Source: Candidatus Omnitrophota bacterium
GTDB taxonomy: Bacteria; Omnitrophota; Gorgyraeia; Gygaellales; Profunditerraquicolaceae
Reading direction: 5' to 3'
Assembly (NCBI GenBank): GCA_041653055.1
Contig: JBAZGD010000002.1
Span: forward strand, 13,751-77,750
Length of the DNA stretch: 64,000 nucleotides
A program made the position numbers and the translations under genes. This document shows positions 55,471 through 61,066 of this stretch, in pieces. How positions within the stretch are numbered: the first letter of the stretch is position 1; each line of letters opens with the position of its first letter. The notes beneath the pieces were generated by a model. It was not told the origin of the DNA, made no database searches, and was given only the letters and a program-made list of their open reading frames with translations.

Positions 55471-56151
55471 CTAATCCTTTTTTATTATCTTAAAAATAAC
55501 CATAACTACCAATATAATATAGATAAAACTGGATAAAAACAATACTTTATTATTTAAAAAATATTCCGTAAGCGCCAGCGGGTCATTCAAGATGCTTTTA
55601 CCCACGGCATAAACAATATACTGGATCCAGAACATTTTCAATGGGGTACCAAGGATAACCGCTACCAAATACTTTCCAAAGCGCATCCCGGTTAAGCCGG
55701 CAGCCAAATCCATAAATCTGTAGGGCACTAAAGGTGCGGCCCTAAATACAAGCAGCCAGAAGATATTCAGCCTGCTCAATTTTTCATCCAGGGCCTGATA
55801 CCTTCCGGACAATTTTTTGTGAACATACCCCCTTCCGAGAAAACGAGATAAATAGAATAAAATAAAGGCGTTGATAAATTCAGCTACGCAGATTAACGAG
55901 GCACTTAAAAAAGGCCCGAAGAGCAGTGCCCCGCTAAACCAAAATACATCCTTGGAGAAAAAAAGAAAAAAACTAATAGTTACGTAAAACAAAACGTATA
56001 ATGACGCGCTTAAAAAAAGAGGGTAACCGGAAAGAGAATCCTGCAGCGCGGGGATATCTATACCTAAATAACGGCTTAAGTACCACAACAATAATATAAC
56101 CAGGACAAAAACAATGAACTTAAACTCCTGGCTGTACTTTCGGATAGCCAT
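55471..56151 (-). CDS. TVP38/TMEM64 (DedA-related, VTT-domain) membrane protein
   Basis: 226 aa polytopic protein with the VTT-domain pattern (…FRAAPLVPYRFMDLAAGLTGMRFGKYL…). Confidence 0.7.
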   Translation of the reverse strand: MAIRKYSQEFKFIVFVLVILLLWYLSRYLGIDIPALQDSLSGYPLFLSASLYVLFYVTISFFLFFSKDVFWFSGALLFGPFLSASLICVAEFINAFILFYLSRFLGRGYVHKKLSGRYQALDEKLSRLNIFWLLVFRAAPLVPYRFMDLAAGLTGMRFGKYLVAVILGTPLKMFWIQYIVYAVGKSILNDPLALTEYFLNNKVLFLSSFIYIILVVMVIFKIIKKD

Positions 56152-57671
56152 TAAGTTACAAAGAGGTTGCGCGAAGAGAACTTCCCGTCTGTGGTAAGGT
56201 TAACGCCGAGCCTTTTTAATCCCACTTCATCCCCGGGGGTGGGGATATGAGTCATATGCACCTCGCAGCCCTTAAGGAGCACAAGTTTCTGCATAGCTAT
56301 TTCTGCGGTATGATTCGTAGTAGCGCTTATAGACAAGGCGATAAGGGATTCTTCCAGGTCGAGGCTCTCGGAATCAGAGTCCAATATTCCTTCCTTAAGC
56401 TTGGCGATCTGGCTAATTATATGAGGGGAGAGCAGGAGTATCTCATCCGGTATGTTGGCCAAAACCTTAACCGCGTTTAAAATCAGGCTTGAAGCCGCAT
56501 GCATAAGCCTGGAATTCTTACCCGTGATAATCCTTCCGTCGGCAAGGGCAATGGCCGCGCCGCAAAATATTCCGGCATTCCCTTTACCCTCCGCCTCTGC
56601 CTCATCCGCGGTCTTTCTGGCCACTTCCACAACTGCCCGGTCAATAACCTTAACCCCCAGCTCCTCCATTAACAAAGTTACCCTGTCCACAGTTTCTTTC
56701 CTCTCAATACCCAGGAGATATTCGCTATTGTATCTAAAGAACCTGCGGACCAACTCCTGCTTAGCGGCATCCTGGACAATCTTATCATCCACTATCCCAA
56801 ACCCCGCACGGTTAACCCCCATATCCGTAGGAGAATTATAAACAGGCTGATTTAAATTTTTATCAAATATACGGGTTAAGATAAGCTTTAAAATCGGAAA
56901 ACATTCCACATCGCGGTTATAATTAATCGAGGTCTTGCTATATTTGTTGAGATGAAAGGGGTCTACCAGGTTAAAATCCTGAATATCTGCGGTAGCCGCC
57001 TCATAGGCAACGTTAACCGGATGCTTAAGGGCAAGGTTCCAGATCGGAAATGTCTCAAACTTGGCATATCCGGCGTTTATCCCGCGTTTATGCTCGTGGT
57101 ACAGCTGGGAGAGGCATACCGAAAGCTTGCCGCTGTTTGGCCCCGGGGCCGTAACAACGCAAATTGGGCTCTTTGTTTCTATAAAATCATTTTTCCCAAA
57201 ACCCTTCTCGCTTACTATTGAATCTACGTCTGCCGGGTAACCCTCTATAGGATAATGCAGGTAAACCTTTACCCCCCTGCGTTCTAACTTATTCTTAAAG
57301 ATTACGGCAGAGGACTGGTTGTTAAAACGCGTAATGACTACTGCCAGTATATCCAGCCCCCACTTCCTTAGGTCGTCTATTAATTTCAAGGTAGCCGCAT
57401 CATAAGTAATCCCGAAATCGCCGCGCACCCTGCCCTTCTCAATGTCTCCGGCATATATAGATAAAACAATGTCTATCTTATCTTTTAACGACTGCAACAG
57501 CCTTATCTTTACGTTAGGGTCATATCCGGGAAGTACGCGTGAGGCGTGGTAATCAAAGCAAAGCTTGCCCCCGAATTCAAGATATAGTTTATTATCAAAC
57601 TTGCGTACGCGGTCAATTATAGCCTGAGTTTGCTCTTTAAGATATTTTTCGTTATCAAAACCTGTTTTCAA
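56151..57671 (-). CDS. DUF1846 / UPF0371 family protein (function unknown)
   Basis: 506 aa. The N-terminus MKTGFDNEKYLKEQTQAIIDRV…KLYLEFGGKL.FDYHASRVLPGY.P… is the characteristic UPF0371 opening. TTG start with SD AAGGGAG. Confidence 0.6.
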   Translation of the reverse strand: MKTGFDNEKYLKEQTQAIIDRVRKFDNKLYLEFGGKLCFDYHASRVLPGYDPNVKIRLLQSLKDKIDIVLSIYAGDIEKGRVRGDFGITYDAATLKLIDDLRKWGLDILAVVITRFNNQSSAVIFKNKLERRGVKVYLHYPIEGYPADVDSIVSEKGFGKNDFIETKSPICVVTAPGPNSGKLSVCLSQLYHEHKRGINAGYAKFETFPIWNLALKHPVNVAYEAATADIQDFNLVDPFHLNKYSKTSINYNRDVECFPILKLILTRIFDKNLNQPVYNSPTDMGVNRAGFGIVDDKIVQDAAKQELVRRFFRYNSEYLLGIERKETVDRVTLLMEELGVKVIDRAVVEVARKTADEAEAEGKGNAGIFCGAAIALADGRIITGKNSRLMHAASSLILNAVKVLANIPDEILLLSPHIISQIAKLKEGILDSDSESLDLEESLIALSISATTNHTAEIAMQKLVLLKGCEVHMTHIPTPGDEVGLKRLGVNLTTDGKFSSRNLFVT

Positions 57672-57696: not shown

Positions 57697-57725
57697 ATTA
57701 TATTACTCTACTATATCTTTGTAAA
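57697..57725 (-). promoter_or_regulatory. candidate internal sigma70-type promoter in front of the DUF1846 gene
   Basis: Minus strand TTTACA (57725..57720), 17-nt spacer, perfect TATAAT (57702..57697), within the 65-nt gap after the HD-GYP stop. Confidence 0.45.
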
Positions 57726-57736
57726 TAGGACAAGAA

Positions 57737-59098
57737 CTATCCTAACAAATGCAGAAAATCCTTCCCATCTGTCCAGGGGTTAAGATAACGCTCAATCTTA
57801 AGGTTATCCTTATTATCCTTAAGGTCTACCTGGGCCTCTTTCTTTTCAGGATAGATTACCTTTACTACAGGCGCAAATATATCATCCTGATTTTCTTCGG
57901 ATACTACCGCCACTCTTTTATCACTCAAGGCCACAATCGAGCCGATCGGCCAGACCCCGACTATCTGAAAGAATCTATCGATTAAAAAAGGGTTATAAGT
58001 CGTGCCTTTACCGCGCATCATAAGGTTATATATTGCATCCGGAGGGTAATCTGACTTGTAGCTTCTTCTCGAGGAGAGCGCATCATAAACATCGCAAATA
58101 GAAACTATTTGAGAAACAATGTTCGGTTTCCTGGGAAAAGAAAGCTTGGGGTACCCGCTTAAATCATATTTTAAATGATGTTCAAAACTTACCACCACCG
58201 GCATAATACCTAATGTATCTGCATATTGCAGCAGGAGCGCTGAACCAAGTACTGTATGGCTTTCAATCTGGGAGAATTCAAATTCACTTAACTGCCCGGG
58301 TTTACGGATAATCTTCCTCGATATATAAAGCTTGCCTATATCATGGAAAAGGGCGGCTAATCCAATCTCTAATATTGAATCCTTGGGAAAACCGATTTTG
58401 GAAGAAAAATACATGCTTAAGACAGAGGTATTAATAATATGAGTGAATGTCCCCAGGTCATACCTTTTAAGGGTATTGAGTTTAAGCAGCTGCTGGTATT
58501 GCCCCCCTAAATTATTGATAATATTATTTATGGATGATTTTAAGGCCATGCCATCCACGGCCTCATGATTAAATATCCGGGCTAAAGGAGAAGCAATGTC
58601 AATAAAGGAATCCTCTTCCTGAACTGGCTTGCCCAAACCTACGCCTATTTTGCCAATACTTATATTATTAACCCCCATTGAAAAAAGATAGTCCTGGGGC
58701 TGGCCCTGAATATCTTCCTTAGGCATCGAGAGAAGCGAAACAAATTTTTCAAGCTCAGCAAACTCAATACCCCTGTTGAAGGTAATCCTTTCAATGCCCC
58801 TCTCTTTAATATAGCCTACTCCTACCTCAGCTAGCTTGCTCAGGGAAAAAAGTATCTCTTTCTCAAAAGCAATTTCATCGCCGATAATGCCTATTGTAAA
58901 CTCAGCCCTGTCAATTAACGCATCCTGAATGCTGTTAAAAGCCTTTTCAAGCGCTTTTTTAAGTATGGAATGCCCCATCCCGTAAAGCCTGGCTGTCTGT
59001 ACCGCAGCCAGGAAATCCTTAAAAAATAACTCTATTTCTTCCTGCACGTTAGGCTCTCCAATATATCCCTGGCTTTCTTTTTTAAAGAGGCATGCCAA
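57737..59098 (-). CDS. HD-GYP domain phosphodiesterase (c-di-GMP signalling) with an uncharacterised N-terminal domain
   Basis: HD motif LFHDIGK and HHxxxDxSGYP (HHLKYDLSGYPK). TTG start in the track. The N-terminal approx. 110 aa is homologous to the N-terminus of the upstream 645-aa protein. Confidence 0.8.
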   Translation of the reverse strand: MACLFKKESQGYIGEPNVQEEIELFFKDFLAAVQTARLYGMGHSILKKALEKAFNSIQDALIDRAEFTIGIIGDEIAFEKEILFSLSKLAEVGVGYIKERGIERITFNRGIEFAELEKFVSLLSMPKEDIQGQPQDYLFSMGVNNISIGKIGVGLGKPVQEEDSFIDIASPLARIFNHEAVDGMALKSSINNIINNLGGQYQQLLKLNTLKRYDLGTFTHIINTSVLSMYFSSKIGFPKDSILEIGLAALFHDIGKLYISRKIIRKPGQLSEFEFSQIESHTVLGSALLLQYADTLGIMPVVVSFEHHLKYDLSGYPKLSFPRKPNIVSQIVSICDVYDALSSRRSYKSDYPPDAIYNLMMRGKGTTYNPFLIDRFFQIVGVWPIGSIVALSDKRVAVVSEENQDDIFAPVVKVIYPEKKEAQVDLKDNKDNLKIERYLNPWTDGKDFLHLLG

Positions 59099-60969
59099 AA
59101 TAAATTCATTTTAGTAAAAGGCAGCAGGTAATCCGCGCCTTCCCTTAAACCCAATTCTTCTATAATCGACATATTCTCCAGTATTACCCTATTCTTGCTA
59201 CCCCAGGGGCTTTTAACCTCAAGCAGAAGCCTGGCCCCTTCCCTCTGCGCTTCCTTATCTCTTGATAAAACCTTAAGGATCTCTTTTTTTAAGATCCTGC
59301 TGCTCTCCTTAAGCGCGCCCAAGAGAAAATCCCGGTCGAACCGAGTCATGCTGCGCATCGACTTTAATATTTCTGACCTTATCATCTCGTTGGAAAAAAA
59401 GTAAATCTGCTTCAGCATTGGCAGGGAAAGATCCAAATTTACCTTCGAAATAGTCCTTACTATTGAAACCAGGAATTCTAAATCATTAGACCTTGACTTT
59501 ACCCGGGAATAGAAAATATCCAGTTGAGAAGGAAAAAACTTAAAAAACATGGTTAATCCGCAAACATTTGCCCCGCCTTCCCCAAAAATCTTATCAAGAT
59601 AGAACTGGCTCCCCTTGCAGCTCTTAACCAAACCCTCGGCCATTGAATTTAAGCCGGCATTTGAATCCCCTCCCCAAACCCCCTCTTCTATCAGCTGGGA
59701 TATCCTATCCTCCAAAACGCCTAACTGGGCTATGGGCCCTGTCCCATTCCGCAGGCTTTCTTTAACTACCTGCAGAAGGTATTTTATATATTCATAGTCT
59801 CTATTTTCAGCTATAAAACCCCATTCCTTCTCTAATCTTTCCAATATATTCTTCTTTCTGGCGGCATCGTTTTCTTTGCTTAACATGTTAAGCAGAATAA
59901 AACAGTAATTAATCCGCATTTCAACAGGGTCAAAAAAGAAACCCTCAGATGATGACATATCCTTAAGCATGGAAGAAAGCGTATTGCGATATACCGGAGA
60001 TAAATTCTGAGAATCAGGGCTTAAAAGAAGGCTCTGGATCCTTTTTGCTAAAAGAGGATTTTTCTTTAACGACAACTTAGGCTCTATGCTCCTGGATAAA
60101 GAGGCTGCGATATTTTGGGCGCCCACGCTTTCGGAGATAGTGGAAAAGAAGTTATAAAACAACGGGTCAGGAGGCTCATCTTTGGAAACATTAGACCATA
60201 AAACCTGGGCCAGGTCATGCTCATTTAAATCATTAAAGAGAACCTTAAGGGACTGAAAATCCTGGCCGGTTAAAGTATTTTCTGAATTAACTAAGTAATT
60301 GAATAGCTCGCCGGAACACTGAGAAAACTTTTCATTATTGCTTTCTTTAAGCTGCCGCATAAACTTAACCAAATCCTCCTTTAAGTCGCAATCGGCGATT
60401 ATATCCTGCGCATGCATCTTCCTCAGCGAGAGCGAAAAATTGTCCGCAAATTCGCTCAGCTTGGCCTTATCCTGGCCTGAAACAGCTCCCTTAAATAGAT
60501 AGCGCCATACATCCTGTGAATCCTCCTGGGATTGGGCGTTAAGCAGGCTGGAATAATCCAGCTCCTCAACTAAGATATGCCTGGGCGCTGTCTTCTTTAA
60601 TATCTCCCCTAACCCGCCGTTTTTAATAATATCCCTTGGGGAAAGAGCCAGGGCGCTTAATAAATCCATCAGCTCATCGCTGTTACACCCGGGGCTTATT
60701 ACTATTTTCTTTATTTTGCGCTGGTGCAGTATCTTGGCCAACTCGATATATGCTTCGGGTTTAACCCAGTACCTCTCGTCCATAAAAAGAGAACCCGGAG
60801 CAATACCCAGTTCTATGGGGTTAATAAAACGCAGCAGCTCTTGTATTGTAAAATTAAACTCCTCTACAGACTTAATGAGATAGGGGTGGTTTCTAGGATA
60901 GGCTAGGGCATTATTAAAAGCTATGCGCAAACCTTTAATAAAACCTTCTATGGCTTCTTCTTTATTCAT
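59032..60969 (-). CDS. hypothetical 645-aa alpha-helical protein, paralogous N-terminal domain to the downstream HD-GYP protein
   Basis: No catalytic motif recognised. Residues approx. 6-115 align without gaps to HD-GYP residues approx. 20-130 (anchors Y-x3-H, IQ, G-I, SP+DI). The 3' end overlaps the HD-GYP ORF by 67 nt. Own promoter-like TTGAAT-16-TAAAAT and SD upstream. Confidence 0.5.
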   Translation of the reverse strand: MNKEEAIEGFIKGLRIAFNNALAYPRNHPYLIKSVEEFNFTIQELLRFINPIELGIAPGSLFMDERYWVKPEAYIELAKILHQRKIKKIVISPGCNSDELMDLLSALALSPRDIIKNGGLGEILKKTAPRHILVEELDYSSLLNAQSQEDSQDVWRYLFKGAVSGQDKAKLSEFADNFSLSLRKMHAQDIIADCDLKEDLVKFMRQLKESNNEKFSQCSGELFNYLVNSENTLTGQDFQSLKVLFNDLNEHDLAQVLWSNVSKDEPPDPLFYNFFSTISESVGAQNIAASLSRSIEPKLSLKKNPLLAKRIQSLLLSPDSQNLSPVYRNTLSSMLKDMSSSEGFFFDPVEMRINYCFILLNMLSKENDAARKKNILERLEKEWGFIAENRDYEYIKYLLQVVKESLRNGTGPIAQLGVLEDRISQLIEEGVWGGDSNAGLNSMAEGLVKSCKGSQFYLDKIFGEGGANVCGLTMFFKFFPSQLDIFYSRVKSRSNDLEFLVSIVRTISKVNLDLSLPMLKQIYFFSNEMIRSEILKSMRSMTRFDRDFLLGALKESSRILKKEILKVLSRDKEAQREGARLLLEVKSPWGSKNRVILENMSIIEELGLREGADYLLPFTKMNLFWHASLKKKARDILESLTCRKK

Positions 60970-61001: not shown

Positions 61002-61037
61002 AATAATAAAAACGCCCTCTGAGCATAAGAGGGCGTT
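61002..61037 (-). terminator. rho-independent terminator downstream of gdhA
   Basis: 9-bp GC-rich stem AACGCCCTC / GAGGGCGTT (61011-61019 / 61029-61037) with a 9-nt loop, followed on the minus strand by a U-run (plus-strand aataataaaa at 61002-61010). Confidence 0.65.
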
Positions 61038-61066
61038 TTCAGGATAAAATATCTTTAGTGCTATTA

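Follow-up and report, generated by a model that had tools for sequence, protein, structure and literature searches.

We analysed a 64,000-nt stretch of contig JBAZGD010000002.1 from a Candidatus Omnitrophota bacterium (the window), in which two overlapping minus-strand genes encode proteins that share an N-terminal domain. The upstream gene (gene A) encodes a 645-aa protein, protein A, and the downstream gene (gene B) encodes a protein with an HD-GYP domain, protein B. The domain common to both, which comprises ~135 residues at each N-terminus, was named N-dom in this study. By comparative genomics, the two proteins are well supported as a dedicated signalling unit organised around this shared module, because the similarity of the N-termini is statistically significant, the A family occurs together with HD-GYP genes, and A matches no characterised family unrelated to signalling. 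The genes and their N-doms are as follows.

Positions 59032..60969, minus strand: gene A, 645 aa (N-dom, helical middle and HEAT-like alpha-solenoid), an open reading frame (ORF) from ATG 60969 with the TAG at 59034-59032 included.
Positions 57737..59047, minus strand: gene B, predicted 436-aa HD-GYP phosphodiesterase (N-dom, linker, HD-GYP and small beta domain), stop codon included.
Positions 60562..60969, minus strand: N-dom of A, residues 1-136, an alpha/beta domain with a Y24-x3-H28-P29 motif, delimited by hhalign, reciprocal hidden Markov models (HMMs) and an AlphaFold2 (AF2) model.
Positions 58652..59047, minus strand: N-dom of B, residues 1-132, with a Y22-x3-H26 motif, assigned by homology to the N-dom of A.

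The related-locus set, found with a 12-sequence alignment, consisted of 81 loci in Omnitrophota and Aminicenantes. From these, 68 orthologous A–B pairs were extracted and each family was aligned; the family alignments used for hhalign contained 69 sequences. BLASTP between the two window proteins gave an E value of 2e-4 with 29% identity over 120 columns. The hhalign comparison of A 1-145 with B 1-135 gave a probability of 98.8% and an E value of 9.2e-17, compared with E values of 0.014-0.33 for five controls between other regions of A and B. The A N-terminal HMM matched the N-terminus of all 75 usable B orthologs, and each N-terminal HMM matched virtually every partner-family protein at its N-terminus, mostly at E values below 1e-5 in either direction. 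In ~1 Mb of six-frame translation, the two HMMs had no other matches save a second A–B pair in one Aminicenantes locus (L028). The AF2 models of A and B showed the same order of elements, namely two long helices, a three-stranded meander, a helix, a strand, helices and a strand. On this evidence from alignment and prediction, the first ~135 residues of A and B are homologous.

This resemblance had been pointed out in a sequence-only reading of the window, and it proved significant in both pairwise and profile alignment. The alignment, which had been described as gap-free, is nearly so. Among the anchor residues named in that reading, Tyr-x3-His is 99-100% conserved in both families, whereas the A family as a whole does not conserve IQ or G-I. 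No feature of the N-dom is better conserved than this Tyr-x3-His motif, which falls where helix 1 turns into helix 2 (residues Y24/H28 of A, Y22/H26 of B); a Glu-Leu in helix 4 is also conserved in the A and B families alike. A family description of ~135 residues, two long helices, a beta-meander, an alpha/beta character and Tyr-x3-His fits both window proteins and all orthologs. The N-dom had no Pfam match in whole proteins or in 19 isolated domains (E up to 1), no NCBIfam match and no relative by sequence among PDB entries.

Gene A was followed on the same strand by a full-length B ortholog in 76 of the 81 loci, and in the other five the contig ends before the B position. A and B overlapped in 73/76 loci by the longest-ORF criterion, mostly by 4-17 nt. 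Clustering of flanking ORFs in 79 loci recovered A in 79/79 and B in 75/79; the next families (ftsQ/ftsA-like, gdhA, gltD and pyrG) were each found in 15 loci or fewer, and no third conserved gene was found in this clustering. The possibility that the A family occurs mostly without HD-GYP neighbours, which would have spoken against the sequence-only reading, thus does not agree with the 76/81 loci or with three very distant variants described below. B was more conserved than A in 68/68 pairs, with median identities to the window proteins of 46.8% and 31.5%, respectively. In L028 (9152-11927; Aminicenantes contig JADHWO010000043.1), the first pair is followed ~2 kb downstream by another A-like/B-like pair, which consists of a 651-aa stop-to-stop N-dom ORF followed by an N-dom ORF cut by the locus end. 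Because of this tandem second pair, the A and B genes appear to duplicate as a unit.

Within the window, the junction of the two genes comprises the following features.

Positions 59032..59047, minus strand: A/B overlap of 16 nt, where gene A ends and gene B starts with GTG, from the sequence and the ortholog alignment.
Positions 59059..59054, minus strand: GGAGAG, a Shine-Dalgarno-like sequence of gene B, from the sequence.

Both ORFs were present on the minus strand where the sequence-only reading had placed them (645 aa for A, and 453 aa as the longest ORF of B, TTG 59098 to 57737). The start of gene B is almost certainly the in-frame GTG 59047, which has GGAGAG 6 nt upstream in the window sequence. 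In the alignment, 43 of the 69 B-family sequences start at the column of this codon and most others within 1-4 residues, and a 436-aa NCBI protein (P0124, 'HD domain-containing protein [Candidatus Omnitrophota bacterium]') is 100% identical to B. The TTG 59098 start and the 67-nt overlap previously derived from it were dropped, since the ortholog alignment, GGAGAG and the identical 436-aa protein favour GTG 59047; with this start, the real overlap is 16 nt. Translational coupling of A and B, as earlier proposed, remains a likely interpretation of the overlap in 73/76 loci and of GGAGAG 6 nt before the GTG, but the overlap itself extends over 16 nt and not 67.

Protein B supplies the catalytic domain of the pair and a further C-terminal domain.

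Positions 57959..58471, minus strand: predicted catalytic HD-GYP domain, B residues 193-363, with H203, H235-D236, K249-P-G, H264, H290-H291, G298-Y299-P300, D319 and R328-x-Y330-K331.
Positions 57785..57937, minus strand: small beta-rich C-terminal domain, B residues 371-421, from AF2 strands with a block-mean predicted local distance difference test (pLDDT) of ~85-94.

B matched the Pfam families HD (1.8e-10) and HD_5 (1.9e-9), both above gathering scores, and matched PmGH (4MCW, E 5e-22), V-cGAP3 (5Z7C, 1e-14) and PA4781 (1.6e-13) in the PDB. Its predicted fold was that of an HD-GYP domain, and its top sequence and fold matches, PmGH, PA4781 and DvhD, are all specific for cyclic di-GMP (c-di-GMP). 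Motif conservation was read in 40 family members, in which H203, H235-D236, H264, H290-H291 and D319 were invariant and aligned with the PmGH ligands. KPG, GYP and RxYK (R328-S-Y330-K331) were present, with R328, Y330 and K331 invariant. The small C-terminal beta domain was conserved in orthologs. In the available passages of the survey by Galperin and Chou (bioRxiv 10.1101/2021.11.05.467447), the HD-GYP signature is given as HHExh[D/N]GxGYP, RxY[K/R] is tied to c-di-GMP specificity, KPG is said to bind c-di-GMP, and the trinuclear-site Glu of PmGH, E185, goes with hydrolysis to GMP and defines a subclass only. The corresponding signature of B reads HHLKYDLSGYP, in which HH, D and GYP are invariant, and Leu stands for Glu after HH and for Gly after Asp throughout the family. 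The third-metal ligand E185 is replaced by Gly in B, with an Asp two residues earlier; its sequence suggests a binuclear-type enzyme. Since Gly occupies the E185 position and HHL...DL replaces HHE...DG, neither the activity of B nor its product (pGpG or GMP) is to be assumed. B is predicted to be an active, cytoplasmic and c-di-GMP-specific phosphodiesterase.

The sequence-only reading had named cyclic GMP-AMP (cGAMP) beside c-di-GMP as a candidate substrate, and cGAMP is the less likely of the two because B retains RxYK. A broader alternative keeps the A–B architecture and supposes that B acts on 3'3'-cGAMP, pGpG or another nucleotide, or that it is mainly a receptor with A as its scaffold. 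We regard this as improbable. In its favour, hydrolysis of cGAMP occurs among HD-GYP proteins, B matches V-cGAP3 (5Z7C) in both sequence and fold, the HHLKYDLSGYP signature departs from HHExxDGxGYP with no E185 equivalent, and the housekeeping genes next to the pair (gdhA/gltD, pyrG, ftsQ/ftsA-like genes and the ATP synthase operon) are not the usual neighbours of enzymes that turn over c-di-GMP. Against it stand the invariant RxY[K/R] residues (R328, Y330 and K331), the likewise invariant KPG and GYP, and the c-di-GMP specificity of the best matches (PmGH, PA4781 and DvhD).

The N-terminal part of B differs from the described input domains of HD-GYP proteins. Models of the RpfG (REC), Bd1817 (DUF3391) and PmGH (GAF) input domains gave no match in B or in 19 N-doms at E up to 1. 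Because its input domain differs, B is an HD-GYP member outside the RpfG, Bd1817 and PmGH architectural families. In locus L087 (129-1571), a 480-aa protein (P0330) with a clear N-dom shows HN for HD, RT for HH and RYP for GYP (LLHNVG in place of HD, and FERTLKWEEHRYP in place of HH...GYP) and has no Pfam HD match; it is probably an inactive receptor-type variant. The gene upstream of it overlaps by 4 nt.

In protein A, the N-dom is followed by two helical regions.

Positions 60550..60567, minus strand: EELDYS motif, A residues 135-140, which closes the N-dom and is specific to the A family, from near-invariant columns.
Positions 59965..60525, minus strand: all-helical middle region, A residues 149-335, AF2 pLDDT 63-90 (lower confidence).
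Positions 59035..59928, minus strand: HEAT/ARM-like alpha-solenoid, A residues 348-645, from a confident AF2 model.

The AF2 model of A had a pLDDT of 84.5. The region ~348-645 showed both stacked antiparallel helix-pair repeats and a HEAT model match, the features of HEAT/ARM membership; HEAT_2 matched weakly in 13 of 48 A-family members. The N-dom was the best-conserved part of the protein, with a median identity of 37.5% compared with ~29% for the rest. In EELDYS, Y139 was invariant and D138 and S140 were at least 90% conserved, and the motif was kept in distant A-like proteins ('EELDYS' in L088 and 'VEFIDYS' in L083). The A family comprised >186 database clusters of ~640 aa from Omnitrophota and from Aminicenantes/Acidobacteriota bins, all annotated as 'hypothetical' or 'HEAT repeat'. 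In Pfam/NCBIfam-type family scans, A had no match to any enzyme family or characterised non-signalling family, the latter being a result that would have told against the sequence-only reading. By sequence and model, protein A is non-catalytic.

That reading had also suggested that the two proteins may be a regulator system of degenerate paralogs. The N-dom is indeed paralogous in A and B, but the rest of A is not a degenerate HD-GYP protein, and A ~150-345 showed no detectable resemblance to the HD-GYP domain in sequence or in fold. The idea can be made explicit: A would be a pseudoenzyme that arose by full-length duplication of B, with an HD-GYP domain now decayed past recognition and a helical extension later added at the C-terminus. 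A full-length profile alignment was collinear (A 5-358 with B 3-363, E 9.6e-12) and matched 'LFNDLNE' in A with 'LFHDIGK' in B, and 'FFFDPVEMRINY' in A with 'TTYNPFLIDRFF' in B. Furthermore, the middle of A and the HD-GYP region of B are both all-helical, and a degenerate B-family member exists in L087. When the N-dom was removed, however, the middle of A against the B HD-GYP region gave an E value of 0.086 and a probability of 0.7%, the level of the controls. No Pfam HD or HD_5 match, even a weak one, was obtained in 48 A-family members (E up to 1), and no HD-GYP metal ligand is conserved in A, so that we give the pseudoenzyme origin very little credence.

The reach of the N-dom was assessed with an exhaustive profile search, which replaced a word-indexed search with the N-terminal 197 residues of B that returned 3 proteins only and was uninformative. 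The B N-dom matched 1280 clusters (50% identity) with E values of 1e-3 or lower, 178 of them with values of 1e-10 or lower, and most of the top matches were B-like proteins 430-480 aa in length. Each of three distant A-like proteins (sizes 694, 713 and 793 aa; loci L083, L085 and L088) is encoded directly before an N-dom-HD-GYP gene. As these distant pairs keep the layout, the module of an N-dom-solenoid protein and an N-dom-HD-GYP protein extends, in age and in distribution, beyond the two phyla sampled. The distant B-like protein of L083 (2161-3258, 365 aa) stops directly past its HD-GYP domain and has no C-terminal beta domain; the latter is thus not essential to the A–B module.

Two further architectures were observed. 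In L084 (1386-3525), a 588-aa histidine kinase (P0367) has the order N-dom-PAS-HisKA-HATPase and is followed by an overlapping gene for a single-domain response regulator. The 987-aa fusion protein P0371, encoded in L082 (5001-7964) without an HD-GYP gene in its vicinity, carries a Ser/Thr kinase at residues 27-280, an N-dom at 307-441 and HEAT repeats at 697-963; by its domain order, P0371 amounts to a scaffold of the A type fused in cis to another kind of signalling enzyme. The Tyr and His were invariant in all four N-dom architectures. The N-dom thus appears to behave like a mobile signalling input domain, and it may act as a signalling input or a dimerisation module. Histidine kinases are a class of obligate homodimers.

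We consider it probable that A and B form a heteromer through their N-doms, in which A would regulate or target the phosphodiesterase. The N-doms of A and B would pair as identical input domains do in homodimeric signalling enzymes and dimeric HD-GYP proteins, and coupled translation would yield a near-equimolar A:B complex. The solenoid of A would then serve as a regulatory or targeting subunit that, on a signal at the N-dom, gates or localises the phosphodiesterase or recruits partners for it. In this scheme, we infer the physical contact between A and B, the direction of regulation, the ligand and the substrate. One N-dom column differs in charge between the families: K87 of A (60709-60711) is Lys in 91% of the A family, and the corresponding E86 of B (58790-58792) is Glu in 97% of the B family. 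Such opposite charges would fit a heterodimer-specific salt bridge.

Several observations weigh against this heteromer. The charge difference at K87(A)/E86(B) was not kept in the distant pairs L083, L085 and L088. Adjacency and overlap show co-expression and a common function, not binding, and the invariant Tyr and His may suit the binding of a ligand or cofactor as well as, or better than, an interface. The N-dom had no identifiable fold relative in the PDB, and its mode of oligomerisation is thus without a structural guide. The AF2 model of B was moderate (pLDDT 69.9), with linker residues 136-196 poorly modelled. In addition, B departs from the consensus in the Gly at the E185 position and in HHL...DL in place of HHE...DG, so that its activity is not to be taken for granted.

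The main alternative is that the two proteins are parallel sensors that form no complex. The N-dom would bind a ligand or cofactor in A and in B separately, B would alter c-di-GMP hydrolysis, the solenoid of A would make contacts of its own, and the linkage of the genes would reflect co-regulation. The N-dom holds the usual input position in the histidine kinase, it also occurs in the Ser/Thr kinase that has no HD-GYP neighbour, and the invariance of Tyr and His in four architectures suggests a binding site. The pairing, however, is stricter than co-regulation usually needs, given the 76/81 loci, the near-universal overlap, the joint duplication and the retention in distant pairs. Every N-dom-HD-GYP gene examined had an upstream partner gene, although that of L087 kept only its last 43 codons and could not be checked for an N-dom. 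Sensing of this kind is also compatible with a heteromer, as a ligand-binding domain can also dimerise. We rate separate sensors as rather unlikely, and the A:B heteromer is retained as the preferred reading.

The surroundings of the pair were of a housekeeping character. The flanking gene names used here (ftsQ/ftsA-like, murC/murB/ddl, gdhA, gltD and pyrG) were read by eye from the sequences, without a Pfam scan. The pair lay directly downstream of cell-division and cell-wall genes (murC/murB/ddl/ftsQ/ftsA-like) in ~13-15/79 loci and, as in the window, downstream of gltD-gdhA in ~14/79 loci. Across L003-L081 the neighbourhoods were always housekeeping and never typical signalling or motility clusters. 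A GGDEF motif scan gave one chance match in the fetched loci, which were its scope rather than whole genomes. The slow evolution of B (~47% median identity, 68 pairs) and this housekeeping setting suggest a central rather than an accessory role for the A–B module.

The limits of the transcription unit were judged from the following feature and from promoter-like sites.

Positions 61009..61039, minus strand: gdhA hairpin (intrinsic terminator of this upstream gene), with a fold energy of -22.3 kcal/mol and a z of -4.3.

At the end of gdhA, this strong hairpin is followed by a T-run. Its z of -4.3 confirms the terminator noted in the sequence-only reading, and it marks the 5' boundary of the A–B transcription unit in this genome. 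A promoter of the pair's own had also been proposed. A sigma-70-like site does exist between the gdhA terminator and gene A, but it is a weak match (9/12 consensus positions) sited too near the ATG: its -10 box ends 7 nt before that codon and therefore leaves a ribosome-binding site no room. In one related locus, gene A begins only 13 nt after atpC of the ATP synthase operon, so a dedicated promoter is not a conserved feature. The pair-specific promoter was dropped, as a 9/12 match in a position incompatible with a ribosome-binding site. The strongest sigma-70-like site of the region (window 57697-57725, minus strand, TTTACA-17-TATAAT, 11/12) falls between the B stop (57737) and the next ORF (506 aa, 57671..56151). 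Given this position past the B stop, the 506-aa gene probably has its own promoter, and the A–B transcription unit probably ends before it.

Of the two classes of phosphodiesterases that degrade c-di-GMP, HD-GYP proteins are understood less well, and to our knowledge the control of their catalysis by input domains is largely unexplained. Omnitrophota and Aminicenantes are, as far as we know, known almost entirely from metagenome-assembled genomes, and signalling in them is consequently essentially unexplored. The locus provides an input domain with no Pfam model or PDB match that is present in at least four signalling architectures, together with a strictly conserved partner protein that carries the same domain, in a compact two-gene unit. 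Tentatively, and with less assurance than the heteromer itself, we put forward the N-dom as a new, fairly widespread cytoplasmic domain that senses and/or dimerises and serves as input for HD-GYP proteins, histidine kinases and Ser/Thr kinases. The A–B pair, near-core in Omnitrophota and Aminicenantes, would then be the first HD-GYP holoenzyme in which a non-catalytic HEAT-like subunit docks via heterotypic N-doms to control c-di-GMP hydrolysis. If the heteromer is real, it would offer a new model of local, subunit-controlled degradation of a second messenger and would add a new domain to censuses of signalling domains.

An HD-GYP protein with a dedicated partner that shares its input domain, or with any dedicated non-catalytic subunit, was not found in the literature searched or in the available passages of the HD-GYP survey, and searches on HD-GYP proteins with HEAT partners and on c-di-GMP in Omnitrophota returned no relevant literature. 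PmGH of Persephonella marina (GAF-HD-GYP, PDB 4MCW/4MDZ) has a GAF input, whereas the input of B is the N-dom, with no GAF match. B also differs from PmGH in the Gly at the E185 position, in its extra C-terminal beta domain and in its obligate upstream partner with the same input domain, no such partner being found for PmGH in the survey passages. In the Bd1817 family (DUF3391-HD-GYP, which also includes PA4108 and VC2497), DUF3391 is described in the material available as four beta-strands followed by two long helices. In the N-dom, by contrast, the two long helices come first, ahead of a beta-meander and an alpha/beta part, and B has no PF11871 match; the same material describes no partner with the same domain for proteins of the Bd1817 family. 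The HEAT/ARM scaffold of the PP2A A subunit resembles protein A at the level of fold only, without homology in sequence (9-17% identity), a likeness common among helical repeats, and protein A differs in its added N-dom, through which, rather than through the solenoid, attachment is proposed. The closest parallel in concept is that of the degenerate GGDEF/EAL partners (E. coli YciR/YdaM/MlrA, PMC3715855; interactome, PMC5635695), where a c-di-GMP enzyme is reported to belong to a dedicated complex with a non-catalytic paralog or relative, which makes signalling local and specific. Those partners are recognisable degenerate catalytic domains, usually without translational coupling, whereas protein A shares only the input domain with its enzyme, the remainder being a predicted alpha-solenoid, and the enzyme is of the HD-GYP type.

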